A stretch of 64,000 nucleotides of DNA from Gammaproteobacteria bacterium (GTDB lineage: Bacteria > Pseudomonadota > Gammaproteobacteria > SZUA-229): assembly GCA_013041745.1 (NCBI GenBank), contig JABDRN010000061.1, forward strand, positions 2,975 to 66,974, read 5' to 3'. This document shows, piece after piece, positions 1 to 20,509 of the stretch. The position numbers and the translations under genes are program-made. The notes under the pieces are model-generated. The model did no database searches, had not been told where the DNA came from, and worked only from the letters and a program-made list of their open reading frames with translations. The stretch's first letter is position 1. Each line of letters opens with the position of its first letter.

Positions 1-410
1 TCCAGTTCATCGATCAGGAAACGGCGCATGGCTTTGTAACCACCTTTTACCCTCGGGTAGATGGTTCCGGTCTGTTCATATATCCATTGCTGCGATATCT
101 TGGAGCGCATACCGCCACGAAAACAGTAGAGTACGCCCTGCGGATGATGCTCGAAGAAGTTCTGCCAGTGCTGTACACGCTGTGATTTGACTTCATCACG
201 TACCAGTTCATGACCTAGTTTTATGGCCTCATCCTGACCGAGGTTTTTGTAGCGGATGCCGATGGCTTCACGTTCCTCGTTATTGATCAGCGGATAATTT
301 TCCGCAGCGGGAAATGATCCCTGGTCAAACTCTACAGGTGCACGGACATCCAGTAATGGAGTATCGTTTAATAGAATAGAGTGGTAATCATCGATTTGCG
401 GTAGTTCCAT
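1..410 (-). CDS. selU: tRNA 2-selenouridine synthase, N-terminal rhodanese part (gene runs off the left window edge)
   Basis: My own translation of the minus strand from ATG at 410-408 gives MELPQIDDYHSILLNDTPLLDVRAPVEFDQGSFPAAENYPLINNEEREAIGIRYK...LYCFRGGMRSKISQQW...GGYKAMRRF. It is collinear with my recollection of the E. coli SelU/YbbB N-terminus, including the CxRGGxRS rhodanese loop. It is absent from the supplied ORF track because it is truncated. Confidence 0.8.
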   Translation of the reverse strand, partial: MELPQIDDYHSILLNDTPLLDVRAPVEFDQGSFPAAENYPLINNEEREAIGIRYKNLGQDEAIKLGHELVRDEVKSQRVQHWQNFFEHHPQGVLYCFRGGMRSKISQQWIYEQTGTIYPRVKGGYKAMRRFLIDEL

Positions 411-4073: not shown

Positions 4074-4541
4074 TTATTCAGTCGCTGCCCTGGTGAATTT
4101 GGCCAGTGCATTACTTACTTTCTGAACTGGTCCTTCACAGCCTTTAGTATTATGCCTCTGCGCCATGTAGGCGGGATCGTTATATGCCAGCCATACCTGT
4201 CCAGCCTCATCTTTATAGGCCAGTGCTTTCTGTGGCAGATCAAGTGCAGCAGTCTGTGAACAGAGCATCAGCGGCGTACCAACTTTTGGGTTGCCAAAGA
4301 TAAGCAGTTCAGTAGGGCGTAGCTGCAGGCCTGCTTTCTCTGCCCCTGCGGTATGGTTGACACGCTTAAAGATAGTCATGCCCTTTTCCTTAAGCACTGT
4401 TTCAAGCTTATCGATTGTCGTGCTAACGCCATGGTTGCTCTTGATACGTATTATCCCGTTCGAGTTATCTGCAAATACCTGGGTGCTCAACAGTATCGAG
4501 ATGACGACTGCCTGGACAGAAATATTCTTTGCTGTGTTCAT
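4074..4541 (-). CDS. DUF302 domain protein, secreted
   Basis: Signal peptide followed by the IFGNPKVGTPLM motif typical of DUF302. Confidence 0.6.
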   Translation of the reverse strand: MNTAKNISVQAVVISILLSTQVFADNSNGIIRIKSNHGVSTTIDKLETVLKEKGMTIFKRVNHTAGAEKAGLQLRPTELLIFGNPKVGTPLMLCSQTAALDLPQKALAYKDEAGQVWLAYNDPAYMAQRHNTKGCEGPVQKVSNALAKFTRAATE

Positions 4542-4574: not shown

Positions 4575-4606
4575 AAAAAAGCAGGGCCCTTGCGGGCCCT
4601 TTGAGT
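4575..4606 (-). terminator. Rho-independent terminator after the porin gene
   Basis: Stem agggccc/gggccct at 4583-4600. The A-run on the plus strand (4575-4580) is a T-run downstream on the minus strand. Confidence 0.55.
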
Positions 4607-4661: not shown

Positions 4662-6011
4662 TTAAAAAACATGGGTGACCTGTATAGCAAAGCGGTCATT
4701 AATCCCCTTGACGTTGTTATCGATCGCCGTCGTGTCTGACTTCGCATCACGCATAGAATATTCAACATTCATCCGCGTTTTCTTGTTGAAGTGATATTGT
4801 GCGCCGACAGTAGTGGTATCGAATGTAGACTCGTCCCCAGGTGCTGAAGGAGTGGCTGGACTTGTTGGCGGCTGTTTAAAGTTTTCGTCACGGGTGTAGG
4901 AGTCATAGCGCAGATCAATCTCCCACTTCGTGTTCGGAATATACCAGCCACCTTCTACATAGTAACCCTTCGCTTCAAGGTCATTAAATAAATGCTGGGG
5001 TCGATGCTGGCCCTGGAATATCATGCCTTTACCCTGCATGTATTCTGCGGATGCCCTGAAAGGTCTCTGTAGATATTTAAAGCCGAGGCCTGAACGGGTA
5101 CGGTCCTGCTCCTGCGTCCTGTTCACAGCATTGGTACGTTTACCATCCTGGTGCCATGCGAACATCTTCAGGCCTTCACGACGACCGCCTTTGCCACCGA
5201 AAACATTTTCTGTCGACAGGTAAAGGTAAAGATCCTTGTTGCTATCGTTATCACCATAGTTCAGACCATTGCCGTTACCATACATGATGGCATAGCTGTT
5301 CTCCCATGTGCCAGCTTTAAAGGTATCAAATACCTGTATACCGACATCACGAAATGCACCGACTGAGCGTGAGAACTGGTTCATGTCAGCATCAGGTGTA
5401 GGGCTTGCGGCATTGTTCAAATCAGTTGTGGTTTGAACGCATGGGCCGGCTGATGGAGATGCACCATCACAAGTGCTATTGGGAAATCGTTCAAGCAGCA
5501 ACTGGTTGGTTACCGTGGTGAAATTAATGTAATCGAATACATGGATCGCCTGTAATCCTTCCTCTGCACCTGGTGTCTTAAATAAGCCTGCACGTATACG
5601 AGCACCAGGTATATGGTTGAGTGTAATGCTGGCATCGGTAAGATGTTTGCCATCATCGCCATAGGTGATGCCGTTATTACCGAATTCAGCCAGTATAAAA
5701 TAGTTTACTTTTGAATCCAGTGGAAATCCTGTACCGCGGACACCGATACGTGCACGGTTGACGTTAAATGCACTCTGATCATCCAGGTTGGGTCCGATCA
5801 GCTTGGGCGGATTGTAACCACCGCCAGCATTAGCGTCGCTGTTATCATGTTGATATTGTGCCTGTATGAAGCCCCATACTTTTGCACGGGCCGACTGGCC
5901 TGGTGCTTCAGTGCCCTGCAGCATAAGCCAGTTTGCGGCCTGTACAGTTGAAGCGCTACTCAATAGTGCTGCTCCAATTGCATTCATCAATAATTTATTC
6001 TTGTAATTCAT
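4662..6011 (-). CDS. outer-membrane porin (beta-barrel)
   Basis: Signal peptide ending TVQA, alternating amphipathic strands rich in G/Y/N, and a C-terminal ...IQVTHVF aromatic terminus. Confidence 0.6.
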   Translation of the reverse strand: MNYKNKLLMNAIGAALLSSASTVQAANWLMLQGTEAPGQSARAKVWGFIQAQYQHDNSDANAGGGYNPPKLIGPNLDDQSAFNVNRARIGVRGTGFPLDSKVNYFILAEFGNNGITYGDDGKHLTDASITLNHIPGARIRAGLFKTPGAEEGLQAIHVFDYINFTTVTNQLLLERFPNSTCDGASPSAGPCVQTTTDLNNAASPTPDADMNQFSRSVGAFRDVGIQVFDTFKAGTWENSYAIMYGNGNGLNYGDNDSNKDLYLYLSTENVFGGKGGRREGLKMFAWHQDGKRTNAVNRTQEQDRTRSGLGFKYLQRPFRASAEYMQGKGMIFQGQHRPQHLFNDLEAKGYYVEGGWYIPNTKWEIDLRYDSYTRDENFKQPPTSPATPSAPGDESTFDTTTVGAQYHFNKKTRMNVEYSMRDAKSDTTAIDNNVKGINDRFAIQVTHVF

Positions 6012-6070: not shown

Positions 6071-6511
6071 TTAAGGTTTTATTAGTTTGAAACCCTGGTT
6101 TTGTAATTCGATAATGCGTACCACTCCGGCAGAAACGGGAACTGCATTACTGTTTAACTCAGGGGCATGACCTAGTTTTTTAGACATGCCTTTAATCGTG
6201 TTCTCACATGCTGAGAACTTGACACCGCTGTCTGTTAAACCCTGGATGCGGCCACTGTTTACGTTTTCCTTGAACATCAGACGCAAGCCAGGGCCAAATG
6301 CCACGATCTCAACATCGACTTTGTCCTGCCCATAAGCTTTGATAAGGTTATTCGCGACGTTTAACACCAGTGTCTGTTTAAAAGGATTGGGGTCGCTAAT
6401 CTGTAGTACGATTCTTTCTTCTGCAAAAGGCTTATCTTCTTCAGCTGCTTGAATCTGATAGCTGGAAATTGCAGCTATCAATAGAAGAAGTACTGATAAT
6501 ATATTTTTCAT
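6071..6511 (-). CDS. periplasmic DsrE/DsrF-like (COG1416-type) protein
   Basis: Signal peptide; VDVEIVAFGPGLRLM...FSACENTIKG...VPVSAGVVRIIELQNQGFKLIKP. The ATG at 6511 has a GGAGA Shine-Dalgarno sequence. The track start at 6523 is also possible. Confidence 0.6.
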   Translation of the reverse strand: MKNILSVLLLLIAAISSYQIQAAEEDKPFAEERIVLQISDPNPFKQTLVLNVANNLIKAYGQDKVDVEIVAFGPGLRLMFKENVNSGRIQGLTDSGVKFSACENTIKGMSKKLGHAPELNSNAVPVSAGVVRIIELQNQGFKLIKP

Positions 6512-6665
6512 TGGTATCTCCAAATTAAAGGTTGTTTTATTTTTTATAAAAAAACATCATGTGTTTCGTTATAACTACTAGACGGCACATTAAGAGTATT
6601 ATTCACTTTGAGTTGTATTGGTGCTATGTATGTAATCTAAATGCGATCATCTATTTATTTGGTGA

Positions 6666-7175
6666 TTATGGTTTTACATATGCATAACCCATCTGCTGCA
6701 GCCTTGCGACCTCTGCGACACCACTTGGTACGATGTCTTTTTTATCGACGTTGTACAGATCAGAATCAACGTTTACTTTTCGGCCACGTACGGTGTTTTC
6801 GCATACATTGAATTCGATGCCCTGGCTTTTGAGACCGTCAATCTTTGCCGTCATGGTTTCATTTGCATTAGCGTTCTTGAATTTTTTTAACTTATCTAAT
6901 GAATCAGGCTCCAGTAATAGCGCAAGCCCATTGCCGTGCAGCACTACTTTCAAGTCCAGATTTTCCGCACCGACGGCATTGATGTGGTTCTGTATGTTTC
7001 GTAATGCGCCAGCCTGTTTCTTAGGGTTGTCATAGTTGATGTGATACACCACCTTTTGTTTACCATAGCGTTCGTTAGCATATGCTGTGGATATCATCAG
7101 CAGACAGATGCTCATCATAAAAGCGGTCAGTATCTTGGTTTTTAATGTGGTCATTTTTTCCTCTTCTGTTTTCAT
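6666..7175 (-). CDS. periplasmic DsrE/DsrF-like (COG1416-type) protein, paralogue of 6071-6511
   Basis: Signal peptide; VVYHINYDNPKK...LDLKVVLHGNGLALLL...FNVCENTVRG...VPSGVAEVARLQQMGYAYVKP. An alternative start lies at 7154. Confidence 0.6.
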   Translation of the reverse strand: MKTEEEKMTTLKTKILTAFMMSICLLMISTAYANERYGKQKVVYHINYDNPKKQAGALRNIQNHINAVGAENLDLKVVLHGNGLALLLEPDSLDKLKKFKNANANETMTAKIDGLKSQGIEFNVCENTVRGRKVNVDSDLYNVDKKDIVPSGVAEVARLQQMGYAYVKP

Positions 7176-7196
7176 GTGGTTTTCCCTTGGTATTGC

Positions 7197-7730
7197 TTAC
7201 TTGAGCTGCAGGGATTTCAGCTTCAACTGGTTGATAAAGGTTTCAAGAATATTTTTTGTGATCATGCCTACCTGGACACCAACGACTTCACCGCTGGGAT
7301 TAAAAAGATAGGTGGTTGGCAGGCCTTGTAATCGTCCAAGGCCTGCTCTCTCGGTTATCCTGGAGTCGCTTAGCAGCACCGGAAAATCGATGAGATATTC
7401 TTCAGCAAAGGCTATTACATCATCTTGATTGGCATAGCCATAACTGGGGAAATCTATGGCTACAGCGACGACGATGGCATCATCATTATTGTGTTCATCA
7501 TGAAAGCTGACAAGTTCGGGCATCTCTTCACGACAGGGCGGGCAGCGGGTGCCCCAGATATTCAGTACCACCCATTTTCCCTGGCCGATATATTCTGAAA
7601 GTTTGTGTTCACTATCATCTATGCTTTTAAGTGATAGATCGAATGATGCATGTACGTTACTACTGGTGACAGACAATAGTGCCGAAATAACTAGACATGA
7701 TCTAATGATGTTGTGAAAATTTAGTGTCAT
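7197..7730 (-). CDS. TlpA-family periplasmic thiol:disulfide oxidoreductase
   Basis: Signal peptide plus a thioredoxin-fold motif, WGTRCPPCREEMPEL. Confidence 0.8.
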   Translation of the reverse strand: MTLNFHNIIRSCLVISALLSVTSSNVHASFDLSLKSIDDSEHKLSEYIGQGKWVVLNIWGTRCPPCREEMPELVSFHDEHNNDDAIVVAVAIDFPSYGYANQDDVIAFAEEYLIDFPVLLSDSRITERAGLGRLQGLPTTYLFNPSGEVVGVQVGMITKNILETFINQLKLKSLQLK

Positions 7731-7763
7731 TTGCTCTCAATTTGATATATTGATAGCTAAAGA

Positions 7764-7789
7764 GACGCATGTACCTGCTGATTTATTCA
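7764..7789 (-). promoter_or_regulatory. candidate ECF-type promoter for the tlpA/DsrE-like operon
   Basis: Read on the minus strand it is TGAAT-N17-CGTC, ending about 35 nt upstream of the tlpA ATG. It mirrors the plus-strand motif at 7802-7826. Confidence 0.35.
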
Positions 7790-7801
7790 CATAAATAAAT
7801 C

Positions 7802-7826
7802 GGAATATTTTTATAAGTGTCGCGTC
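7802..7826 (+). promoter_or_regulatory. candidate autoregulatory ECF-type promoter for the sigma/anti-sigma operon
   Basis: GGAAT-N16-CGTC, ending 27 nt upstream of the ATG at 7853. Confidence 0.35.
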
Positions 7827-7852
7827 TATTAATTAGTTATTGGGAGCTTTGT

Positions 7853-8401
7853 ATGAAAGTTGTTAAAAATCTGGTAGCAGCGATCTCACTAAAATCCGAG
7901 TTTGCTGCACGGCGTAACAAGTTATATAGAATCGCGTATTCCTGGTGCCATGACCCGGCTCTGGCAGATGACCTGGTACAGGAAACGATATACAAGGCAA
8001 TCAAGAACGCTTCTAAGTTGCGCGACGTAAATACCTTAGATAGCTGGATATACCGTATCCTCTATAACAGCTGGCAGGATTATTTACGTGTCAAAGGAAG
8101 GAATGTGGAATTTGTCGAGATGCAGGATGAACATCAGTCGGGGCATTCGGACAACTACCAGCAGTCACAGATAGTCAAGCGGGTGAGGGCATCTGTCGAG
8201 CAGCTGCCATTGGCGTTACGTGAGGTTGTAACACTGGCAGATTTTGCCGGTTTTAGTTACGCACAGATCGCAGAGATTACCGAAGTGCCCATCGGAACCG
8301 TGATGAGCCGCCTCTTCAGGGCGCGCAAGAATCTAAAGCAACAGTTACTGGAGTTTGGTTCAGATGAGATATCTGAATTTAAATTACGGAGGGTAAAATA
8401 A
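7853..8401 (+). CDS. ECF (sigma-70 family) RNA polymerase sigma factor
   Basis: Region 2 is DLVQETIYKAIKN and region 4 is FSYAQIAEITEVPIGTVMSRLFRARKNL. The ATG at 7853 follows GGGAG. The track start at 7817 is a GTG. Confidence 0.85.
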   Translation: MKVVKNLVAAISLKSEFAARRNKLYRIAYSWCHDPALADDLVQETIYKAIKNASKLRDVNTLDSWIYRILYNSWQDYLRVKGRNVEFVEMQDEHQSGHSDNYQQSQIVKRVRASVEQLPLALREVVTLADFAGFSYAQIAEITEVPIGTVMSRLFRARKNLKQQLLEFGSDEISEFKLRRVK

Positions 8402-9135
8402 TGACGATCAAAGATCTCTCTGATGATCACTTGAACCTGTTCATCGACGAAGAACTCGATACAGATGAATTGAATGAGATTCGCCATGCTGTCATGGAAG
8501 ACAAGGAGCTGCGTGAGCGTGTCTGCCAGTTAAAAGCCGTACGTGAGCTGGTCGGCTATGCATACAGTGATGTGCCTGGACCTGATTATGATAGCCCAGA
8601 GGCAAATAAATCTAATTCTTTTTTCGGCAGGGCGATAGCCGCATCAGTGACGCTTGTCATCGGTGTTTTCCTCGGTTGGGAGACATATCATTACAGTCCA
8701 CAATCAACCGACGATATATCGGCTGAAAATACTTTTCAGTATGTAGCGAACCATGTCGCTGTGGATCATACTAATCGTAAGATCATCCTGCACATCGACT
8801 CAGGTGATCTGCAGGTTGTCAATGCAGCGTTGAATGAAGCAGACCACTTGCTTGCAACCTATAAAAAAGCCAACGTACCAATGAAGCTGGATGTGGTCAC
8901 TAATAAAGGCGGCATCAATATGTTGAGACCGGGTGTTTCACCCTATGTCGAACGCATTCAGAAAATGATCCAGGATGAAGATGTCTCCTTCTTTGCCTGC
9001 GAGCGGTCGGTGGCAAAAGCGCATAAGCGGGAAGGGGTCGAAATCAAACTGATACCTGGTGTCGATTCTGATAAATCGGCAAGAGACCTGATACCAGATC
9101 GCCTGGAGAAAGGCTGGGTATATATCAAAGCTTAA
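8401..9135 (+). CDS. single-pass anti-sigma factor with a C-terminal periplasmic DsrE-like domain
   Basis: The start overlaps the sigma stop (TAATG). The N-terminal anti-sigma helix region is DDHLNLFIDEELDTDELNEIRHAVMED and the TM segment is AIAASVTLVIGVFLGW. The C-terminal domain, ILHIDSGD...KLDVVTNKGGINML...FFACERSVAK...GWVYIKA, aligns by eye with the two stand-alone DsrE-like proteins. Confidence 0.6.
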   Translation: MTIKDLSDDHLNLFIDEELDTDELNEIRHAVMEDKELRERVCQLKAVRELVGYAYSDVPGPDYDSPEANKSNSFFGRAIAASVTLVIGVFLGWETYHYSPQSTDDISAENTFQYVANHVAVDHTNRKIILHIDSGDLQVVNAALNEADHLLATYKKANVPMKLDVVTNKGGINMLRPGVSPYVERIQKMIQDEDVSFFACERSVAKAHKREGVEIKLIPGVDSDKSARDLIPDRLEKGWVYIKA

Positions 9136-9925: not shown

Positions 9926-10876
9926 CTAGTCGTCTTTGCCTGAGTCCAGGGCAGCCTTGCGGGCTTCTTCCTGTTTTTTCTCGTGTGCTGCGATCTCTGC
10001 CTGTTTTCGGAATTCAAGAACCTCACGGCGTTCTTCGACGCGTTTCTCCCAGGCGCCTTCACGTTCCTTGATGGTCATCTCGCCGAAAAACACCTGTTTC
10101 ATCAGTTTGAAACCAAACTTCATCAGGGCAATGTCATCCTTTTCCAGTGCTGCATACTCATCATCGGTCAGATCGTACATCTTGATAAAGGAATCACTCA
10201 TGACGAAGCGGCGGAAACGGTCGATATCGTAACTCGCCATGAAGAACATCTGTAAACTCATCTCAGAAGGTTTACCGATGGTAGGACCAGTCGATTTCTT
10301 CTTCAGGATGATCTGGTACCATTCGTGGTTCAGGTCGTCATAGATTTCAACGCCCTGTTCTTTACGATATTCACCGATGGTCTGGATGTGGTCTTCATCA
10401 TGGCCTTTACAGTGATCTTCTTTGATGAGCAGGAAGTGACGCTCATCACTTGATTCACTGATCGATTTCATCGACAGCAGGCCAGACGGGTAATAACGGC
10501 AGGCGGTAGGCCGGTCTTCATAAACAGAGCAGCCTTCTTCTTTGACGAACAGGCAGGCACCATCATCATCGGTACGTAACTTCAGGCCTGGTACATTATG
10601 TGAGTCCAGTTCAAATGGTACGGTATGCTCTTTCAGGAACTCGCTGGAGTCCATGCCAAGTGCATTTTTCAAGCGAATGATGTCGTAGGGTGCAAGGGTG
10701 ACGTCTGCGCGTGCGCAGCATCTGTTCCAGCAGGATACACCGCGGTGACAACGGAATTTTAACTCATCATCCAGTTCTAGCCGGGTTGGCATCACAGGGC
10801 TTGAGTGTGGCAGTTCAAACTTAAAAGTGTCATCTTGGCTCATGGTATTACCTGTTTGTTGAATGTGTTCTGTCAT
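9926..10876 (-). CDS. YkgJ-family (CxxCxxCC-type) Cys-cluster protein with a K/E-rich C-terminal tail
   Basis: FRCHRGVSCWNRCC plus CSVYEDRPTACRYYP, typical of the putative Zn/Fe-chelating YkgJ family. An alternative start lies at 10843. Confidence 0.6.
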   Translation of the reverse strand: MTEHIQQTGNTMSQDDTFKFELPHSSPVMPTRLELDDELKFRCHRGVSCWNRCCARADVTLAPYDIIRLKNALGMDSSEFLKEHTVPFELDSHNVPGLKLRTDDDGACLFVKEEGCSVYEDRPTACRYYPSGLLSMKSISESSDERHFLLIKEDHCKGHDEDHIQTIGEYRKEQGVEIYDDLNHEWYQIILKKKSTGPTIGKPSEMSLQMFFMASYDIDRFRRFVMSDSFIKMYDLTDDEYAALEKDDIALMKFGFKLMKQVFFGEMTIKEREGAWEKRVEERREVLEFRKQAEIAAHEKKQEEARKAALDSGKDD

Positions 10877-11089: not shown

Positions 11090-13075
11090 TTACTTGAACA
11101 GTTTAGACTTGTCAACTAGATCAACGTGTGCACGCTTGAAGCATGTCCACTTCTTAGTTTCTTTGTCATAGATTGAGTTAACGAAGCAGTGCCAGTTTTC
11201 TTCATCGACGAAGTTCTTATCCGTACGATAGTAGAAACCAGGGTAACGAGATTCTTCACGGAACTCGATATGCTTCATGTGAGCTTCAGCTGTCAGGATG
11301 CGGTGGTAGTTTTCCCATGCACGAAGTAATTCGTGAAGGTCTTTCGCACGCATCTTCTCAGCGTCTTCTTTCAGCATGTCCAGCTTCTCACCAGCCACTT
11401 TCATCATTTCTGCGTTAGTGTTGTAGTAAGTAGCTACACCCGCAACGTACTCATCCATGATCTTCTGCAGACGGAACTGCAGCATCTTAGGAGTGATGTA
11501 GTTAGGGTTAACGTCGATCGCTGTAGTGTAGTCTTTGTGCTCGAGGTATGTACGAACAGGACGGTAGATCTCAGCAACCAGATCTTCAACAGAAGTATCA
11601 AGTTCAGGCTGGTAATCAGCGTTGTCCAGAACATACTTAACCATAGATTTAGCAGCAAGACGACCTTCGGCATGTGAACCAGAAGAGAACTTGTGGCCAG
11701 AAGCGCCAACACCGTCACCAGCTGTGAACAGGCCGTTTACAGTGGTCATACCACGGTAGCCCCAGTTCCAGCCTTGTGGCAGGTGATCAGGTACGCCAGC
11801 TTCAGTTTCAGTTGTAGGCGCGCCTACATCATCAGGACCTGAAGTCCAGATGCCGCAACAACCAGAGTGAGAACCCAGCAGGTATGGTTCGGTAGGCATC
11901 AGCTCAGAGTTTTTCTTCTCTGGCTCAACGTTCTCACCAACCCAGATACCACATTGGCCAACACACATGTCAAGGAAATCTTCCCATGCTTCAGCTTCTA
12001 AGTGCTTAACTTCGCGAGGAGACAGAGTTTCGCGCAGGTTGCCCAGTGCAGTTACTGTGTCCATCCAGATAGGTCCGCGACCTTCTTTCATCTCTTTAAG
12101 CATCAGGTGGTTACGCAGACAGGAAGCAGGAACGGCAGCCTGACCATAAGGAGGGTAGTCGTCCAGCATTTCTTTGTTGCGAGTCATGTAAGTTTCGCCG
12201 TATGCGTTAGTAGCCTGTGCTTTAAACAGCAGGAACCATGCGCCAACAGGACCGTAACCGTCTTTGAAACGAGTCGGTACGAAACGATTTTCCATCAGTG
12301 TCAGCTCAGCGCCCGCTTCAGCAGCCATTGAGTAGGTAGAACCTGCGTTCCACACTGGATACCATGCACGACCAGTACCTTCACCAACAGAACGTGGACG
12401 GAAGATGTTCACACAACCACCAGCAGCAAGCAGGATAGCTTTTGCTTTGTAGATTACGATCTTGTCATCACGAGTTGAGAAACCAACGGCACCAGCAATC
12501 TTGCTAGGGTCGTTCTTGTCATTGATAAGTTTAACGATGAAGATACGCTCATCGATACGGTCAACGCCTAAAGCTTTCTTGGCAGCTTCAGCGACGATCC
12601 ATTTGTAAGACTCACCATTGATCATGATCTGCCATTTACCAGAGCGTACAGGCTTACCACCATCTTTCAGTGATGTCATGCCTTTAGAACCGTCGAAACG
12701 CTCGCCGTTCTCGTCTGTTTTCCAGATTGGGAGACCCCATTCTTCGAACAGGTGGACAGACTCATCTACGTGGCGACCAAGGTCGTACGCGAGGTCATCA
12801 CGAGTGATACCCATAAGGTCGTTAGAGACCATACGTGCGTAGTCAGCAGGATCCTGCTCAGGACCAATGTAAGTGTTGATAGCTGAAAGACCTTGAGCAA
12901 CAGCACCAGAACGGTCCATTGCAGCTTTATCAACTAATTTAACAGAAATGTCTTTGCCTGAAGCTTCGATCCAGCGTGGAATTTCGAACGCTGTACCACA
13001 ACAGGCCATACCGCCACCGATAAGAAGAATATCAACTTCTTCTTCGACAACATCAGGATTACCAAATTCGGCCAT
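11090..13075 (-). CDS. aprA: adenylylsulfate (APS) reductase alpha subunit
   Basis: 661 aa with an FAD fold, DILLIGGGMACCGTAFE. Overall length and sequence are characteristic of AprA, and it lies immediately downstream of aprB. Confidence 0.95.
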   Translation of the reverse strand: MAEFGNPDVVEEEVDILLIGGGMACCGTAFEIPRWIEASGKDISVKLVDKAAMDRSGAVAQGLSAINTYIGPEQDPADYARMVSNDLMGITRDDLAYDLGRHVDESVHLFEEWGLPIWKTDENGERFDGSKGMTSLKDGGKPVRSGKWQIMINGESYKWIVAEAAKKALGVDRIDERIFIVKLINDKNDPSKIAGAVGFSTRDDKIVIYKAKAILLAAGGCVNIFRPRSVGEGTGRAWYPVWNAGSTYSMAAEAGAELTLMENRFVPTRFKDGYGPVGAWFLLFKAQATNAYGETYMTRNKEMLDDYPPYGQAAVPASCLRNHLMLKEMKEGRGPIWMDTVTALGNLRETLSPREVKHLEAEAWEDFLDMCVGQCGIWVGENVEPEKKNSELMPTEPYLLGSHSGCCGIWTSGPDDVGAPTTETEAGVPDHLPQGWNWGYRGMTTVNGLFTAGDGVGASGHKFSSGSHAEGRLAAKSMVKYVLDNADYQPELDTSVEDLVAEIYRPVRTYLEHKDYTTAIDVNPNYITPKMLQFRLQKIMDEYVAGVATYYNTNAEMMKVAGEKLDMLKEDAEKMRAKDLHELLRAWENYHRILTAEAHMKHIEFREESRYPGFYYRTDKNFVDEENWHCFVNSIYDKETKKWTCFKRAHVDLVDKSKLFK

Positions 13076-13128
13076 CTTTTTTTCCTCTATTTAAAATCTA
13101 AAATTGTTTAATGATCTTGTTGCAAATA

Positions 13129-13602
13129 TTACTTGCAGATCAGTTCGCTTGGATCACCAGCACGGTAGCCATTCTGTTCCATGTGGTTGAAGAAACCTGG
13201 ATCAGTAATCTTAGCCATATCAGCAGCAGGCTTACCAGCATAAGGATCGATAGAACCTTCAGCAGTAGTACGAATAGGGAATTTGAAACGCTTCATGTTT
13301 CCGTTACGGAACTTGATAGTCCACATGATTGAGTCTGTACCACGCAGAGGCTGTACAGAACCGCCCAAAGGTACAACGTCAGCATAGTGACGAGCTTCAA
13401 TAGCATTTTGAGGACAGATTTTAACGCAAGAATAACATTCCCAGCATTGCTCTGGTTCCTGGTTGTATGACTTCATGGCGTGTCCAGTTTCAGAACCGTC
13501 TTTGTCAAGTTTCATTAGATCGTGTGGGCAGATGTACATGCAAGCTGTACGGTCTTGGCCTTTACATCCATCACACTTTTCAGTACGTACAAAAGTAGGC
13601 AT
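13129..13602 (-). CDS. aprB: adenylylsulfate (APS) reductase beta subunit
   Basis: MPTFVRTEKCDGCKG...CMYICPHDLM...CWECYSCVKICPQNAI. It has two ferredoxin-type clusters plus the AprB C-terminal tail. Confidence 0.95.
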   Translation of the reverse strand: MPTFVRTEKCDGCKGQDRTACMYICPHDLMKLDKDGSETGHAMKSYNQEPEQCWECYSCVKICPQNAIEARHYADVVPLGGSVQPLRGTDSIMWTIKFRNGNMKRFKFPIRTTAEGSIDPYAGKPAADMAKITDPGFFNHMEQNGYRAGDPSELICK

Positions 13603-14162: not shown

Positions 14163-14810
14163 ATGTCAGAAACTAACGCCGAGCAGGAAAATGCTCATAT
14201 CAGCCCAACCGAAATCAATCTTCACCAAAAATCACGGTTGCTGGAAATCGCCTTCTCAGATGGCTTTCGATTCAACTTTCCATGTGAATACCTACGCGTG
14301 TTTTCAACAGCCGCTGAGGTCAAAGTCATGGATAAACCGGTTCATGGTAAGCAGATGGTGAATATATCGATGCTTGATCCGCAGGGGTCCTATGCACTGA
14401 AAATCACCTTCGATGACGGCCACGATACGGGTATCTATTCCTGGGGCACCCTGCATGAATTAGGCAAAAACTATGAGAGCAACTGGCAGGGTTACCTGGA
14501 GAACCTGGAAAAGCATGGTCTCAGCCGTGGTGATGCGCGAGTCACAGATAACGAAGGCAAGGTCGTCATCAAACTGCTCTATTTTATCGACCTGGCGAAA
14601 GTTTCCGGCAGGGATGAAGAAGAGGTGGTAGTCCCTGAATCTGTTACCAATGTTGAAACCCTGCTCAACTGGATGAGAAAGCGCGGCGAGCGATGGCAGG
14701 AGCCGTTTTCAGATAATCGTCTGCAGGTCACCGTCAATAAACAGTTTTCTGAACCATATACGCTGATAGAGCATGGTGATGAAGTGGCGTTTGTGCCCAG
14801 GCCAAAATAA
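14163..14810 (+). CDS. DUF971 domain fused to a MoaD/ThiS-like beta-grasp domain (no C-terminal GG)
   Basis: The N-terminal half, LLEIAFSDGFRFNFPCEYLRV...ITFDDGHDTGIYSWGTLHELG, is DUF971. The C-terminal half, IKLLYFIDLAKVSGRDEEEVVVPE...NVETLLNWM...VNKQF...GDEVAFVPRPK, is MoaD-like but ends in PRPK. Confidence 0.6.
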   Translation: MSETNAEQENAHISPTEINLHQKSRLLEIAFSDGFRFNFPCEYLRVFSTAAEVKVMDKPVHGKQMVNISMLDPQGSYALKITFDDGHDTGIYSWGTLHELGKNYESNWQGYLENLEKHGLSRGDARVTDNEGKVVIKLLYFIDLAKVSGRDEEEVVVPESVTNVETLLNWMRKRGERWQEPFSDNRLQVTVNKQFSEPYTLIEHGDEVAFVPRPK

Positions 14811-15970: not shown

Positions 15971-17161
15971 TTATTTCAGGCTTGAGTAGTAATCCATCAG
16001 GATCTGCGCGACCTCAGGACGTGAAAACTCCTTAGGTGGGGCGATACCGTTACCTAACATCTCACGAACCTTGGTGCCTGAGAGAAGAACGAAATCTTCT
16101 TTTTCATGATCGGGTGCTTCACACATCATAACAACCTTGTCCAGTTTCTTAGAGTAGGCAGTGTGGTCGGCTCTGAAGATCTCGATGTCGAGGGCATCGG
16201 CTGGCACCTGGTCATCAAATATCGTCTGTGCATCAAACGCACCGTAGTGATCACCGACGCCGGCATGGTCACGACCGATGATGAAGTGAGTTGCGCCCAT
16301 ATTCTGGCGGAAAACGGCGTGTAACACACCTTCACGTGGGCCAGCGTAGAGCATATCGAAACCGTAACCGGTAACCATCGCGCTGTTAGCAGGGAAGTAT
16401 AGCTCAACCATCTTACGGATTGCTGCATCACGAACGGGTGCAGGGATATCGCCTGGTTTAAGCTTGCCTAGCAGCATGTGGATGACAAGGCCGTCACAAC
16501 CTAAGCGCTCCATCGCCATATGACAGAGTTCTTCGTGTGCCAGGTGCATCGGGTTACGAGTCTGGAATGCAACAACTTTTTTCCAGCCGCGCTCTGCGAT
16601 CTCGTTACGGATCTCAACAGCCGTACGGAAGGTATCCGGGAACTCGGTCTGGAAGTAAGAGAAGTTCAGTACCTGGATCGGACCTGACAGACAGACTTTG
16701 CCCTGCTCAACGAAAGCATCAACGCCTGGGTGGTCTTCACCCGCTGCCGGTGCGTAAACTTTTTCGGTGATCAACTTGATATCGTCGTCAGAAAATTCTT
16801 CGACTGCTTCGACATCCATCACTGCGATAACAGGGTGTCCTTCCACATTTGGGTCTTTCAGCGCGATACGGTCACCGGCTTTGATGTTACCGGCATCTTT
16901 TACCAGGTTAAGTACTGGAGTCGGCCAGAACAGGCCTGAAGTGGTTTTCAAATCTGTTGCAACGGACAGTGCATCAGCTTTGTTCATGTAACCAGTCAAC
17001 GGGTTGAAGTAGCCAGCACCCATCATGACCGCGTTTGCAGCTGTAGCCGAACTTACAAGTATAGAAGCCAGGCCTTCAGCTTCTTTTTGTAATGCTTCGT
17101 TTGCAGCAGGATCGTATACGAACAATGGATTTAGTTCGTCTGAACCATGAGGTTTAATCAT
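15971..17161 (-). CDS. sat: sulfate adenylyltransferase (ATP sulfurylase)
   Basis: QTRNPMHLAHEEL and GRDHAGVG motifs in a 396-aa homo-oligomeric-type Sat. Confidence 0.95.
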   Translation of the reverse strand: MIKPHGSDELNPLFVYDPAANEALQKEAEGLASILVSSATAANAVMMGAGYFNPLTGYMNKADALSVATDLKTTSGLFWPTPVLNLVKDAGNIKAGDRIALKDPNVEGHPVIAVMDVEAVEEFSDDDIKLITEKVYAPAAGEDHPGVDAFVEQGKVCLSGPIQVLNFSYFQTEFPDTFRTAVEIRNEIAERGWKKVVAFQTRNPMHLAHEELCHMAMERLGCDGLVIHMLLGKLKPGDIPAPVRDAAIRKMVELYFPANSAMVTGYGFDMLYAGPREGVLHAVFRQNMGATHFIIGRDHAGVGDHYGAFDAQTIFDDQVPADALDIEIFRADHTAYSKKLDKVVMMCEAPDHEKEDFVLLSGTKVREMLGNGIAPPKEFSRPEVAQILMDYYSSLK

Positions 17162-18062: not shown

Positions 18063-19052
18063 TTAGATCTGATTTAAATATTTCTCGACCACGTTAGCTG
18101 GCAGGGGAATATAACCATCCTTAATAACCACTTCCTGACCCTGTTTTGAAAGAATCAACTTGATGAACTCTTTGTCCAGCGGGGCCAGTTCAGCATTGGG
18201 TTTCTTGTTGACATAGACATAGAGGAAACGAGATAGTGGGTATGAGCCTGAAACTGCATTATCAGCAGTTGCATCGATATACTCACCACCCGGTTTTTTT
18301 GTCAGTGGTACTGCGCGCACGCCCGATGTCTTGTAGCCGATACCAGAATAGCCGATACCATTGATAGAGGTTGAGACGGACTGAACCACTGAGGCAGAGC
18401 CCGGCTGCTCGTTGACGTTGTTCTTGTAGTCACCTTTACACAGGGCTTTCTTTTTGAAGTAACCATAGGTGCCTGATACTGAGTTACGGCCATAGATCTG
18501 GATATCGCGGTTCTTCCAGTTACCTGTTAATCCCAGGTCGCCCCATTTCGTGATGTCTTTATCGCCGCCACACTTCCTGGTGGAAGAGAATACAGCGTCT
18601 ACGTCGGGGATAGTCATGCCTTTGACAGGATTATCTTTGTTTACATAAACAGCTAGAGCGTCTATCGCGACTGGAATAGCTGTTGGTTTGTAGCCATAGC
18701 GATCTTCAAATGCTGCGATCTCTTTCGACTTCATCTTACGGCTCATCGGCCCGAAGTTTGAAGTGGCTTCAGTCAGTGCAGGCGGCGCAGTCGATGAACC
18801 GGCAGCCTGTATCTGAATGTTTACATTAGGGTATGAGCGCTTGAACGCCTCTGCCCATAAAGTCATCAGATTAGCCAGTGTGTCAGAACCGACACTGGAA
18901 AGATTTCCTGATATGCCGCTAACCGCTTTATATTCAGGCACGCCTTCCTCGACAGATACGGCAGATGCAGTGCCTGACGCTAACAGGCCGATGTTTAGAA
19001 TTGCACCAGTCAGGGCTGCATTCATAACGGTTTTGATTTGTTTATGTTTCAT
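18063..19052 (-). CDS. pstS: phosphate ABC transporter substrate-binding protein
   Basis: Signal peptide; [18 protein letters not shown]...[13 protein letters not shown], typical of the PstS family. It is adjacent to phoR and the pst genes. Confidence 0.9.
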
Positions 19053-19108
19053 TATGCTAACTCCAGTTAAAAAGTGAGAATATTTTGCGTAAGAATTGTG
19101 AAGCTCAG

Positions 19109-19137
19109 GTGACAGAGTTGTTACAATATTGTTACAG
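19109..19137 (-). promoter_or_regulatory. Pho box upstream of pstS
   Basis: On the minus strand it reads CTGTAACAATA TTGTAACAACT CTGTCAC. These are three CTGTCAT-like direct repeats in 11-bp phase, about 57-85 nt upstream of the pstS ATG. Confidence 0.65.
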
Positions 19138-19204
19138 GAAAATCACTATTGATTAGCTTTAATATAAATGTGGTCTCCATGTATGAAGCAGAGGCGGGAA
19201 GGCT

Positions 19205-20509
19205 TCAATATTCTTCGTAATTCAGTGGGAACTCGCAACAGAAAGTGCTGCCTTTGCCTGGTTCACTCAATATGTGCAGGCTTGCGTTATGCCGGTCGAG
19301 GACATGTTTGACGATGGCAAGGCCAAGCCCGGTACCTCCCTGTTCTCTGGAGCGCCCTTCATCGACACGATAAAAACGTTCAGTCAGTCTCGGTATGTGC
19401 TCGTAGCCGATGCCGACGCCTTCGTCCTTTACGCCGATGGTAGTTCCGGTATCATGTGAGGTTGCGAATAATGTAATCGTTTCAGCGTCTGGGGTATAGC
19501 GTATCGCATTGGTGAGCAGGTTTGAAAATGCCATACGCAGTTCTTCATAGCTGCCATTCAGATGCGAAGCCAGCTCTTTTCCGGGTACTTCATTCTCTAT
19601 CACCAGTTCGATATGGTGCTGCTCCTGATCGAGAGCGATCGCTTCGTTATAGACATCGTTCAACAAAGTGTGGATATCGATCACATTGCTAAAATCGACC
19701 GCAGCCGCTGACTCCAGTTTTGCCAGGTCTATGAGCTCGGTAATGATCTTGTTCATGCGCACTGTTTGCTGCTGGATCATGTCCAGCGGCACTTTCAGTT
19801 GCTCATCGGCATTGTGCTGCAGAAACTCTATGTATCCTGTCATGACGGTAAGTGGAGTTCGCAACTCGTGTGATGCATTGGAGATAAAGTCGCGTCGCAT
19901 ATCATCAAGCTGGCTAAGTGAAGTGATGTCGCGTGCACTGATCAAATACTGACCATCACCATATGGCGTCATGTTCAGAATAAGCTGTCTCTGGTTCACC
20001 TGAAACTTTAACGGCTTTTGAAAATCTTTTTTCAGAAGATAGTTTACAAACTTTGGCTGCCGGATGAGGTTATCTATGCGCTGACCGACATCCATCCCGG
20101 AATTAAAGTTGAACATCAGGCGTGCAGCAGGATTGAACCACTCGATCTCATTTGATTTGTTTAATACGATGGTAGCATAAGGCAGCGCCCGCGTAGATTT
20201 CTGGAATCGATTGAGGATGGATGTCAATCGTCGGCGTGCTTTGCGCTGGCGCTTGAATAGCTGGTAAAGCTGATAATAGACATCGTCCCAGATGCCGAAT
20301 ACTTCGGGTGTTTTCTTGGATGGATTGACCAGCCATTTGTGCAGCCTGTTGAGGTTGAACAGATGCCATGCCAGATAAACAGCCAGAGCGATGAACAGGA
20401 GCAAAAATACAGATTCAGTGATCATGCCGATCAATAACATGAAAGCGATCCATGTTATTAATAAGACGAGCTCTCGCCTGAGGCTTGGCGTTATCGAGAT
20501 CTTTGCCAT
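19205..20509 (-). CDS. phoR: phosphate regulon sensor histidine kinase
   Basis: Two N-terminal TM segments, a PAS-like segment, the H-box SHELRTPLT and N/G boxes. It lies directly downstream of phoB. Confidence 0.9.
   Translation of the reverse strand: MAKISITPSLRRELVLLITWIAFMLLIGMITESVFLLLFIALAVYLAWHLFNLNRLHKWLVNPSKKTPEVFGIWDDVYYQLYQLFKRQRKARRRLTSILNRFQKSTRALPYATIVLNKSNEIEWFNPAARLMFNFNSGMDVGQRIDNLIRQPKFVNYLLKKDFQKPLKFQVNQRQLILNMTPYGDGQYLISARDITSLSQLDDMRRDFISNASHELRTPLTVMTGYIEFLQHNADEQLKVPLDMIQQQTVRMNKIITELIDLAKLESAAAVDFSNVIDIHTLLNDVYNEAIALDQEQHHIELVIENEVPGKELASHLNGSYEELRMAFSNLLTNAIRYTPDAETITLFATSHDTGTTIGVKDEGVGIGYEHIPRLTERFYRVDEGRSREQGGTGLGLAIVKHVLDRHNASLHILSEPGKGSTFCCEFPLNYEEY

Follow-up and report, generated by a model that had tools for sequence, protein, structure and literature searches.

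The ECF sigma/anti-sigma pairs RseA/sigma-E of E. coli and MucA/AlgU of P. aeruginosa are the nearest solved relatives of both partners of the locus described here. In these systems the gene of the ECF sigma factor is followed by the gene of a single-pass anti-sigma factor and transcribed from an autoregulated promoter, and the anti-sigma factor combines a zinc-free cytoplasmic class-I domain with a periplasmic C-terminal domain that gates the release of the sigma factor. The present locus has the same gene order, and the remaining features are predicted for it. Unlike in RseA and MucA, the periplasmic domain, which contains an invariant Cys, is predicted to adopt an unrelated alpha/beta fold of the DsrE-like type, and a gene for an RseB/MucB-like partner is not present. 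Furthermore, the predicted promoter (GGAATA...CGTCT) differs, and the putative regulon consists of a Cys-carrier and a porin instead of envelope-folding factors.

To our knowledge, the ECF26 factors RpoE1/RpoE4 represent the only experimentally described ECF system answering to an inorganic sulfur compound. In Sinorhizobium meliloti they respond to sulfite, control adjacent periplasmic sulfur-oxidation genes (sorT) and are autoregulated and co-transcribed with the anti-sigma gene, the ECF26 anti-sigma factors carrying COG5662-type and not DsrE domains (PMC3511301). In contrast to the system proposed here, the ECF26 signal seems to be intracellular, and the genes controlled encode a sulfite dehydrogenase together with the electron carriers serving it. 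A control of sigma release by the cysteine chemistry of the anti-sigma factor, together with a thiol-redox regulon, resembles RsrA/sigma-R. However, RsrA is a soluble protein of the cytoplasm whose sensing site is the H-x3-C-x2-C zinc motif of the anti-sigma domain itself, whereas the candidate sensing Cys of the present protein is located in a separate periplasmic domain and only Cys42 (103/141 family members) is left of the zinc motif. CstR, SqrR, BigR and FisR are cytoplasmic one-component repressors or activators in which sulfane sulfur on Cys controls sulfur-handling genes; the proposed logic would be the same, but the protein described here is transmembrane, has an unrelated fold and would sense in the periplasm.

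The sigma factor and its anti-sigma partner

The locus was analysed within a window comprising a 64,000-nucleotide stretch of the contig JABDRN010000061.1 of a sulfur-oxidising bacterium (Table 1). A preliminary description of this DNA had proposed five open reading frames encoding an ECF sigma/anti-sigma pair, a TlpA-like protein and two DsrE-like proteins. Their positions were borne out, the sole correction being the start of the sigma gene: the mechanical ORF call begins at GTG 7817, while the sigma proteins of relatives comprise 182 aa. Since the conserved promoter (7802-7826) overlaps this GTG, the true start is almost certainly ATG 7853.

Table 1. Position, strand and basis of assignment of the features of the locus within the window.
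Feature	Position	Strand	Basis
DUF302 gene	4074-4541		
Terminator-like hairpin and T-run after the porin gene	4583..4600	-	sequence
OprO/OprP-family outer-membrane porin (anion-selective type)	4662..6011	-	Pfam Porin_O_P, E=1.3e-12
DsrE-B, secreted DsrE-like protein, 150 aa	6071..6523; probable start ATG 6511 (MKNILSV...)	-	orthologue alignments
Predicted ECF-type promoter of dsrEB-porin, TGAATA-N15-CGTC	6581..6605	-	motif search
DsrE-A, secreted DsrE-like protein, 169 aa, signal peptide	6666..7175	-	Pfam DsrE
TlpA/ResA-like secreted thiol:disulfide oxidoreductase, CPPC motif	7197..7730	-	Pfam
Predicted tlpA-dsrEA promoter of ECF type, TGAATA-N16-CGTC followed by T	7764..7789	-	motif search
Predicted sigma/anti-sigma operon promoter of ECF type, GGAATA-N15-CGTC followed by T	7802..7826	+	motif search
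ECF sigma factor, 182 aa	7853..8401	+	Pfam, TIGR02937, length of relatives
Single-pass anti-sigma factor, 244 aa	8401..9135	+	start overlaps sigma stop by 1 nt
Predicted cytoplasmic anti-sigma domain, residues 1-55, three helices	8401..8565	+	model, family profile
Predicted transmembrane helix, residues 74-97	8620..8691	+	model, conservation
Predicted periplasmic DsrE-like domain, residues 126-244, MTH1491/COG1416 type	8776..9132	+	profile, model, Foldseek
Codon of invariant Cys200, within FACERS	8998-9000	+	alignment

The sigma protein contains only the sigma-2 and sigma-4 domains (Pfam Sigma70_r2, E=3.5e-14; r4_2, E=2.5e-16), which fits ECF (group 4) sigma factors, and reaches 84 bits against the TIGR02937 sigma70-ECF cut-off of 42.9. 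The nearest solved structures are SigH, AlgU and RpoE, and no NCBIfam equivalog scored at or above its cut-off. DsrE is not mentioned in the main text of the ECF reclassification paper.

The assignment of the following gene product as an anti-sigma factor, already made in the preliminary description, is supported by gene order and domain structure. Its start overlaps the sigma stop by 1 nt in the window, and a sigma gene lies immediately 5' of the anti-sigma gene in 59/59 loci, that is, in all those with sufficient flanking sequence. The whole window protein gave no match in Pfam or NCBIfam (zf-HC2 E=0.22, not significant), whereas among 141 family members zf-HC2 was matched by 31 (best E=6.6e-6) and RseA_N by six. 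Weak matches of the family profile in the PDB were found with the N-domains of MucA (6IN7, E=0.014) and RseA (8Z6G, E=0.022). The AlphaFold model (overall pLDDT 87.7) agrees with the previously noted anti-sigma helix region and single TM segment, placing three helices at residues 8-15, 21-33 and 35-55 (pLDDT 83-97) and one transmembrane helix at residues 74-97, in which Ala81, Gly88, Gly92 and Trp93 are nearly invariant. Asp16 is invariant among relatives within an LNxFxDxEL motif, a type of motif typical of class-I anti-sigma domains. Residues 1-55 are thus predicted to form a class-I-like domain that would hold the sigma factor. Membership of the zinc-binding anti-sigma (ZAS) proteins was ruled out by the lack of the H-x3-C-x2-C motif in this domain: the corresponding RERVCQLK contains the single Cys42, with no His at the fourth position ahead of it in the window protein and no second Cys.

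The periplasmic DsrE-like domain and its relatives

The preliminary description had proposed a DsrE-like sensor domain from four motifs matched by eye with the two neighbouring secreted proteins (ILHIDSGD/VVYHINYD, KLDVVTNKGG/LKVVLHGNG, FFACERS/FNVCENT/FSACENT and GWVYIKA/GYAYVKP). All four were recovered by BLASTP, and the HMM and structure comparisons confirmed the proposal. The family profile matched MTH1491 (1L1S) with E=2e-20 over residues 124-240 and ST0148 (2PD2) with E=1.4e-10. The domain was modelled with a pLDDT above 94 throughout, and Foldseek gave TM scores of 0.88 to 1L1S, 0.85 to 2PD2 and 0.64 to chain 2HY5_A, the DsrE subunit of DsrEFH. On the strength of the model, the sensor domain has a DsrE-like alpha/beta fold, presumably of the MTH1491/COG1416 branch and not of DsrE/TusD proper. 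The Pfam DsrE family (PF02635) remained below threshold for the window protein and was matched by 41/141 relatives at E<0.01.

The match covers MTH1491 and ST0148 from end to end; the Cys residues are aligned (ACERS versus ACSNT), and a C-terminal GW.YI motif is shared. Both are stand-alone soluble archaeal proteins, whereas the domain described here is exported and located behind an anti-sigma domain and a TM helix. The DsrEFH and TusBCD complexes share the superfamily fold; unlike the present protein they are cytoplasmic heterohexamers relaying persulfide to DsrC or TusE, and no sequence similarity to them was detectable in the search of the family profile against the PDB.

Cys200 is the sole periplasmic Cys of the anti-sigma factor and is conserved without exception (141/141) in a diverse set of relatives with identities as low as 27%; His131 (132/141) and Asn168 (133/141) are conserved alongside it. 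The Cys retained in all three proteins according to the preliminary description is likewise invariant in DsrE-B (56/56, SACENT) and DsrE-A (24/24, NVCENT), in each of which it is the single Cys and the only one of its module. In DsrE the reactive Cys marks the transition from a beta-strand to a helix. In the model, Cys200 occupies such a junction between strand 195-199 and helix 201-211.

Comparison of the sensor domain with orthologue alignments (hhalign) yielded E=3e-28 for DsrE-B and E=2e-15 for DsrE-A; pairwise BLASTP matches were weak (E=1e-4 and E=0.8, respectively). The likeness to DsrE-like proteins at the profile and structure level is far above chance, and judged from these alignments the domain and the secreted DsrE-B, its closest relative, are paralogues.

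The anti-sigma family comprises 785 clusters at 50% identity and occurs in at least 218 species genomes. The hosts are mostly sulfur-oxidising Gamma- and Betaproteobacteria, including Thiotrichales, Thiohalobacter, Thiogranum, Thioalkalispiraceae, Sulfuricella, Sulfuriferula and Sulfurimicrobium; for some others, among them MAGs of Lysobacteraceae and Rhodocyclaceae, sulfur oxidation is not obvious. In the window, AprBA and Sat are encoded 2-8 kb from the module. In one further locus (L075) the module is surrounded by genes encoding a YeeE/YedE Sulf_transp transporter, a thioredoxin-like protein, a second DsrE-B, a SoxB-like protein and SoxA, and in another (L064) a redoxin gene is located nearby. 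Conserved metal-resistance genes were not detected beside the module in the compared loci. Family members are named hypothetical in NCBI and UniProt and DsrE/DsrF family in JGI. Neither a description of the family nor a precedent for an anti-sigma factor with a DsrE-like sensor was found in the searchable literature, in agreement with the preliminary description.

Predicted promoters and regulon genes

A motif search that allowed spacers of 14-17 nt and ended at CGTC revealed putative promoters with the consensus (G/T)GAATA-N15/16-CGTCT, or in its fuller form (G/T)GAATA[A/T][A/T]-N13/14-CGTCT. Only spacers of 15 or 16 nt were found, without conservation of their sequence, and the T following CGTC is conserved though it lies outside the search pattern. 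With an AAC/AAT-type -35 and a CGT-type -10 element the motif fits the ECF autoregulatory type, and its position ahead of the sigma operon implies that the operon is autoregulated. The window contains four strict matches, compared with 1.1 expected from shuffling, and three of these belong to the locus and are correctly oriented. In 82 loci (812 kb), 147 of 172 matches are located no more than 200 nt upstream of sigma, dsrEB, tlpA or dsrEA; the porin gene, the DUF302 gene and flanking genes are not preceded by the motif. Related loci carried a match at most 200 nt ahead of the sigma gene in 73/80 cases, ahead of dsrEB in 46/56 and ahead of tlpA in 23 of the 33 cases in which this gene occurs.

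In the window the promoters of tlpA-dsrEA and of the sigma operon stand back to back, and that of dsrEB-porin occupies the intergenic region separating dsrEA from dsrEB. The hairpin downstream of the porin gene is the probable end of the dsrEB-porin unit. The DUF302 gene, preceded by the motif in 0/19 loci, therefore probably forms a separate unit.

DsrE-A matches Pfam DsrE with 43.3 bits (cut-off 22.7). The tlpA product was assigned to AhpC-TSA (E=8e-19) and also to Redoxin, its scores for the NCBIfam ResA, StoA and TlpA families being under the cut-offs. The porin gene lies downstream of dsrEB in the same direction, and both occur together in 43/59 loci; among the 30 most divergent loci adjacent dsrEB-porin genes are missing in 15, for example in Thiohalobacter thiocyanaticus. 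The tlpA gene was present in 21/59 loci, the most divergent ones all lacking it (0/30). The sigma factor is thus predicted to drive its own operon, dsrEB-porin and, in this clade, tlpA-dsrEA. The suggestion that the regulon comprises the adjacent genes agrees with the predicted promoters at sigma, tlpA and dsrEB. Its composition has to be revised in so far as the ancient conserved regulon seems to be dsrEB and the OprO/P-type porin gene, tlpA and dsrEA being apparent additions confined to the clade of the window.

Proposed mechanism and alternative explanations

Taken together, the interpretation given in the preliminary description is supported, and we infer that the signal at Cys200 is sulfane sulfur or the thiol redox state. 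DsrE-family proteins bind and transfer sulfane sulfur on a conserved Cys. We lean, if only slightly, towards an ECF sigma/single-pass anti-sigma switch in which Cys200 reads periplasmic reactive sulfur and which controls the carriers and the porin. The DsrE-like domain would expose Cys200 to the periplasm while the anti-sigma domain retains the sigma factor in the cytoplasm. Reactive sulfur could modify Cys200 to a persulfide, polysulfide or thiosulfonate adduct as in DsrE-family carriers, and the modified or destabilised domain would lead to removal of the anti-sigma factor, by analogy with RseA and MucA most likely through site-1 and then site-2 intramembrane proteolysis. In the TM helix, the conserved Gly88 and Gly92, both helix-breaking residues, and an Ala-Ala pair would fit such a cleavage. 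The freed sigma factor would then induce periplasmic Cys-carriers and an anion channel of the outer membrane, which handle or import the sulfur compound, and the TlpA-like reductase may reset oxidised carrier and sensor thiols, resulting in negative feedback.

This explanation is supported by the architecture and fold, the invariance of Cys200, the paralogy with DsrE-B, the constant pairing with a sigma gene and the distribution of the promoter motif, while host taxonomy and gene context (AprBA, Sat and L075) tie the switch to sulfur oxidation; the PF02635 score of the window protein and the limited number of PF02635 matches among relatives, the incomplete occurrence of dsrEB-porin and the hosts without obvious sulfur oxidation speak against it. 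If true, the sensing of periplasmic reactive sulfur by a sigma/anti-sigma switch would be an undescribed mode outside the cytoplasm. Only tentatively, and with some doubt, do we propose that the family is the first periplasmic sensor of polysulfide- or thiosulfate-derived sulfane sulfur, in which persulfidation or thiosulfonation of a single Cys on a DsrE-fold domain gates proteolytic sigma release, and that the sensor arose when the gene of the carrier under its control was duplicated. The OprO/P-type anion porin and the secreted DsrE-like Cys-carrier would then represent a hitherto unrecognised route by which reduced sulfur anions pass the outer membrane and are handed on in the periplasm.

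As obligate oligomerisation is the rule among DsrE-family proteins, the sensor domain might, instead of reading a small molecule itself, hetero-oligomerise with the secreted DsrE-B, the loading or abundance of which would set anti-sigma stability in a loop resembling the CpxP-CpxA or RseB-RseA feedback. DsrEFH, TusBCD and related proteins are indeed built of paralogous subunits, and DsrE-B is both the closest relative of the sensor and the most conserved regulon member. This scenario seems unlikely, however, considering that adjacent dsrEB is missing in half of the divergent loci and that a purely structural contact would not demand strict invariance of Cys200. A generic envelope thiol/disulfide or oxidative-stress sensor, in which any periplasmic oxidant converts Cys200 to a sulfenate or mixed disulfide and the regulon repairs thiols, with no specificity for sulfur compounds, appears improbable: the distribution is strongly skewed to sulfur oxidisers, an anion-type porin is not obviously a repair function, and tlpA is absent from the most divergent loci, the conserved core being dsrEB-porin. 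What such a sensor would explain is that the regulon includes a TlpA/ResA-like reductase in this clade, as well as the redoxin and thioredoxin-like protein near the module in L064 and L075, and the one reactive Cys per module.

Sulfur transfer is only putative for the MTH1491/COG1416 branch, the porin family is known for phosphate/polyphosphate selectivity, and His131 and Asn168 together with Cys200 would suit a metal or anion site. The domain could accordingly bind a non-sulfur ligand (a metal or metalloid, selenium, or an anion entering via the OprO/P-type porin) or act as a protease-shielding plug with the signal sensed elsewhere; taxonomy and gene context, which point to sulfur oxidation, and the lack of conserved metal-resistance genes beside the module render this quite improbable. 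It is hardly conceivable that the protein is no anti-sigma factor at all and is instead a membrane-anchored DsrE-like carrier sharing an operon with an otherwise regulated ECF sigma factor. Although the window protein lacks a significant anti-sigma Pfam match and the MucA and RseA matches are weak, such a carrier would leave unexplained the sigma gene directly upstream in all 59 loci with its start/stop overlap, the zf-HC2 and RseA_N matches among relatives, the confidently modelled three-helix cytoplasmic domain and the invariant Asp16 in its class-I-typical motif.

Gene organisation and identity of the anti-sigma factor

The ORF scan of the window recovered the same gene layout as the preliminary description. 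The genes for a TlpA/ResA-like protein (tlpA), two secreted DsrE-like proteins (dsrEA and dsrEB) and a porin are located on the minus strand, divergent from the sigma/anti-sigma pair (see table). The sigma-like ORF encodes an ECF sigma factor according to the NCBIfam model TIGR02937 (84 bits, cut-off 42.9), and no NCBIfam equivalog exceeded its cut-off for this protein. Based on the position of the predicted promoter, the gene almost certainly starts at ATG 7853 (182 aa, like its relatives) and not at GTG 7817. For the product of the adjoining anti-sigma gene no domain was detected in either the Pfam or the NCBIfam library.

Features of the window and of related sequences (window positions unless stated otherwise)
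Feature	Position	Strand	Basis or remark
DUF302 ORF (155 aa)	4074-4541	-	Pfam/NCBIfam
Terminator-like hairpin	4600-4583	-	after porin gene
OprO/OprP-family porin ORF (449 aa)	4662-6011	-	Pfam/NCBIfam
dsrEB ORF (150 aa), weaker DsrE-like	6071-6523	-	Pfam 18.8 bits, under cut-off
Predicted promoter of dsrEB-porin, in dsrEA-dsrEB gap	6605-6581	-	motif scan
dsrEA ORF (169 aa), DsrE family	6666-7175	-	Pfam 43.3 bits, over cut-off
tlpA ORF (177 aa), TlpA/ResA-like redoxin with CPPC motif	7197-7730	-	Pfam/NCBIfam
Predicted promoter of tlpA-dsrEA, TGAATA-N16-CGTCT	7789-7764	-	motif scan
Predicted promoter of sigma operon, GGAATA-N15-CGTCT	7802-7826	+	motif scan
Sigma-like ORF	7817-8401	+	ORF scan; Pfam Sigma70_r2 and r4_2
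Anti-sigma ORF (244 aa)	8401-9135	+	ORF scan; start shares one base with sigma stop codon
CxxCxxCC (YkgJ-type) Fe-S protein	9926-10876		
AprBA	11090-13602		near module
ATP sulfurylase	15971-17161		near module
PhoR-type histidine kinase, PBP-like (PstS-type) binding-protein gene beside it	18063-20509		
Anti-sigma factor, helices	residues 8-15, 21-33, 35-55		AlphaFold model
Anti-sigma factor, transmembrane helix	residues 74-97		AlphaFold model
Anti-sigma factor, linker	residues 102-120		AlphaFold model, low confidence
Anti-sigma factor, alpha/beta domain	residues 126-243		AlphaFold model, pLDDT > 94
L075 (related locus), parts of cluster	L075 1512-3292 and 6775-11278		

The previous proposal of an anti-sigma factor is supported by gene context and by the N-terminal domain. 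An ECF sigma gene was found immediately upstream in 59/59 related loci, namely those whose upstream sequence extends over 3.2 kb or more. A family profile built from 141 representatives, which share 27-50% identity with the window protein, gave weak matches to MucA (E=0.014) and RseA (E=0.022) in their N-terminal domains. Pfam detected zf-HC2 in 31 (best E=6.6e-6) and RseA_N in six of these 141 members. Their N-terminal domain furthermore contains the motif LNxFxDxELD with an invariant Asp16; motifs of this kind are typical of class-I anti-sigma domains. Since the zinc motif H-x3-C-x2-C is absent from the family, leaving Cys42 alone (103/141 members), a zinc-binding (ZAS-type) redox sensor is ruled out. 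The pair belongs to the ECF sigma/class-I anti-sigma kind, with the same way of working as RseA/MucA-type systems and different from ZAS-type sensors. From the anti-sigma domain and the Lys and Arg residues ahead of the transmembrane helix we infer a cytoplasmic N-terminus and a periplasmic DsrE-like domain. The protein is predicted to tether its ECF sigma factor to the membrane.

The periplasmic DsrE-like domain and its cysteine

In pairwise BLASTP the anti-sigma factor matched the neighbouring DsrE-B at a marginal E=1e-4 and DsrE-A at E=0.8, and the two neighbours matched each other at E=1e-18. The four motif pairs aligned by eye in the preliminary description were all reproduced in these comparisons, though only at marginal E-values, and it took family profiles to resolve the relationship. 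A word-indexed search returned 423 homologues of the anti-sigma factor, all of ~244 aa, and an exhaustive search 785 clusters (50% identity) at E 1e-3 or better. Nearly all of these clusters are 230-260 aa in length and align from residue ~5 to 243 of the window protein; the three-part architecture of anti-sigma domain, transmembrane helix and periplasmic domain is therefore the norm of a large family. A genome scan using a 12-sequence alignment as query detected relatives in at least 218 species genomes.

The family profile matched the PDB entries 1L1S (MTH1491; E=2e-20) over the full length of the domain (profile positions 124-240 aligned with chain positions 5-112) and 2PD2 (ST0148; E=1.4e-10), with the Cys and the C-terminal GW.YI motif aligned in both. 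An AlphaFold model from the alignment of the 141 sequences reached a mean pLDDT of 87.7, after an earlier model from a shallow alignment (40 sequences, >=67% identity) had been discarded (pLDDT 58.8). According to Foldseek, the modelled sensor domain resembles 1L1S (target-normalised TM 0.88, rmsd 2.5 Å) and 2PD2 (TM 0.85), the DsrE of DsrEFH being more distant (TM 0.64). Profile-profile comparison related the sensor family to the orthologue alignments of DsrE-B (99.8% probability, E=3e-28) and DsrE-A (98.5% probability, E=2e-15). These results confirm the formerly assumed DsrE-like fold of the sensor domain and assign it to the MTH1491/COG1416 branch, with the neighbouring DsrE-B as nearest relative.

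Cys200 (codon 8998-9000, within FACERS) is present in 141/141 representatives and is in every one of them the sole Cys of the periplasmic part. DsrE-B (56/56) and DsrE-A (24/24), which both start with a signal-peptide-like sequence, likewise have one invariant Cys and none other in the mature protein, so that the cysteine noticed earlier in all three proteins is indeed retained. The periplasmic domain is a single-Cys DsrE-like module and a paralogue of the putative carrier DsrE-B under its predicted control. In the model Cys200 follows the strand 195-199 and opens the helix 201-211, presumably the same place between strand and helix as that of the reactive Cys of DsrE and TusD. His131 (132/141) and Asn168 (133/141) are likewise conserved and each end a strand neighbouring that of Cys200, which suggests that the C-terminal edge of the sheet forms a pocket.

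Within the clade of the window, the juxtamembrane periplasmic linker SAENTFQYVANHV (residues 101-125; window 8701-8775) is nearly invariant. It is of low confidence in the model and showed no conservation across the 141 members of the wider family; it could represent a clade-specific protease or partner site.

Predicted promoters and conservation of the module

Two back-to-back predicted ECF-type promoter sites were detected in the 122-bp tlpA-sigma intergenic region, and a third motif site precedes the probable start of dsrEB (ATG 6511) by ~70 nt. Predicted promoters of the sigma factor precede its own operon, dsrEB-porin and tlpA-dsrEA. The strict motif scan of both strands of the 64-kb window gave four hits only, compared with 1.1 expected from shuffles. 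Among 82 non-redundant related loci (812 kb), 147 of 172 hits share the orientation of a gene that follows within 200 nt, which is sigma (73 of the 80 loci having the gene), dsrEB (46/56), tlpA (23/33) or dsrEA (5/24), and none lies within this distance upstream of the anti-sigma, porin, DUF302 and two flanking genes. The spacers of the assigned sites are 15 or 16 nt long, though 14-17 were allowed, and are not conserved in sequence; a T after CGTC, which is outside the search pattern, is common to these sites. These properties are characteristic of an ECF promoter, and the distribution of the motif supports a sigma factor that regulates itself and acts directly on tlpA-dsrEA and dsrEB-porin, in line with the regulon of divergent tlpA and DsrE-like genes suggested in the preliminary description.

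The remaining hit in the window (14441-14415, minus strand, GGAATA-N17-CGTC) was rejected as a promoter, as it is located inside a coding region, antisense in a GBBH-like_N/ThiS-fusion gene (ORF 14163-14810), and its 17-nt spacer sets it apart from every assigned site. It recurs at the same offset in the related locus L013 (11981-12007), as coding conservation predicts. Given the atypical spacer, it probably reflects conservation of the coding sequence; the hit points toward aprBA, ~0.8 kb off, and may be linked to its expression.

Gene counts in the 59 loci with sufficient upstream flank, and in the 30 most divergent of them, were 44 and 15 for dsrEB, 43 and 15 for the porin, 21 and 0 for tlpA, 18 and 2 for dsrEA, and 19 and 0 for DUF302. 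The ancestral module therefore consists of the sigma factor, the DsrE-type anti-sigma factor, DsrE-B and the porin, and TlpA and DsrE-A are additions in the clade of the window, each with its own promoter copy. The clade-specific DUF302 gene was rejected as a regulon member; it lacks the motif in 19 loci, and because of the terminator-like hairpin between it and the porin gene it is probably a separate unit. Its secreted product, encoded just past the porin terminator in 19 loci of the clade, gave its best NCBIfam match (3.5e-33, under cut-off) to a CrcB fluoride-channel model, in the part where this model covers a DUF302 fusion.

In some genomes, such as Thiohalobacter thiocyanaticus (L055), the sigma/anti-sigma pair occurs without adjacent targets. 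No substitute divergent target was found in L055, where the neighbours of the pair are a PilT-like gene and groEL. Upstream of its sigma gene a well-formed divergent motif copy (5196-5221, minus strand) faces the 3' end of the PilT-like gene, with no dsrEB or other recognisable ORF after it; similar sites occur in L051, L054, L060 and L069. Such a site may be a relic or the promoter of a small gene or RNA that is not annotated. In two further loci on MAG contigs (L015 and L040) tlpA appears as two adjacent partial ORF matches ~-1000 to -1250 from the anti-sigma start, suggesting a frameshift, a pseudogene or an assembly error.

Putative sulfur sensing and relation to known systems

The named relatives from the genome scan are, with few exceptions, overwhelmingly sulfur oxidisers (Thiotrichales, Thiohalobacter, Thiogranum, Thiohalomonadaceae, Thioalkalispiraceae, Sulfuricella, Sulfuriferula, Sulfurimicrobium, Gallionellaceae, Woeseiaceae). 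Since AprBA and ATP sulfurylase are encoded near the module, the host of the window is a sulfur oxidiser via the reverse APS reductase/Sat route. In an Oceanospirillales MAG of an independent lineage (L075) the module is located within a sox-like cluster. Past its porin gene come genes for a thioredoxin-like protein and a YeeE/YedE Sulf_transp transporter; the opposite flank encodes SoxA and a SoxB-like protein in addition to a solute-binding protein and a second paralogue of DsrE-B. Taxonomy and gene context support a sulfur-compound signal, short of proof.

We regard it as somewhat probable that the system as a whole senses sulfur at Cys200, releases the sigma factor and induces the porin and the Cys-carriers. 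Modification of Cys200 by reactive sulfur would turn the sensor domain into a substrate of site-1 followed by site-2 proteolysis; the conserved Gly88, Gly92 and Ala80-Ala81 pair of the transmembrane helix are reminiscent of RseP substrates. The freed sigma factor would then induce the anion-type porin and the Cys-carriers, and the TlpA-like reductase may reset the thiols, a role similar to that attributed to SoxS and SoxW for SoxYZ. That DsrE-B, as closest relative of the sensor domain, instead titrates the anti-sigma factor by hetero-oligomerisation seems rather unlikely. Generic thiol or oxidative-stress sensing, to be weighed against the sulfur-oxidising relatives, is improbable, and a sensor domain which binds a non-sulfur ligand or is purely structural slightly more so. 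It is very hard to believe, with a sigma gene preceding it in every locus considered, that the protein is not an anti-sigma factor at all.

Substrate sensing outside the cytoplasm is poorly understood in chemolithotrophic sulfur oxidisers. To our knowledge, the known persulfide sensors are cytoplasmic, and ECF26, with a different anti-sigma factor, is the sole sulfur-responsive ECF system to have been characterised. As a functional analogue, the sulfite-responsive ECF26 of S. meliloti comes nearest to the putative sulfur-sensing pair, but differs in its COG5662-type, not DsrE-type, anti-sigma factors (PMC3511301). In agreement with the preliminary description, which knew of no described anti-sigma factor of this kind, full-text literature searches for DsrE linked to an anti-sigma factor returned no paper, only DsRed noise, STAS/RsbR and unrelated ECF systems. 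DsrE is absent from the main texts of the papers on ECF reclassification and on class-I anti-sigma co-evolution and from that of a 2021 review; a one-line mention may stand in the supplementary group descriptions of the ECF classification. None of the names of family members in NCBI, UniProt or JGI is that of an anti-sigma factor: NCBI and UniProt use "hypothetical protein" or "uncharacterized protein" (e.g. WP_125180964.1), JGI "intracellular sulfur oxidation DsrE/DsrF family protein". The widespread family offers a compact workable unit with a single-candidate-Cys sensor, a well-defined predicted promoter and a two-gene core regulon. It would also be a first entry point to the function of the MTH1491/COG1416 branch of the DsrE fold, which has had a solved structure since 2002 but no assigned function. 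The porin and the periplasmic Cys-carrier could form a missing step in sulfur-compound uptake, and the promoter and sigma factor are possible parts for reactive-sulfur biosensors.
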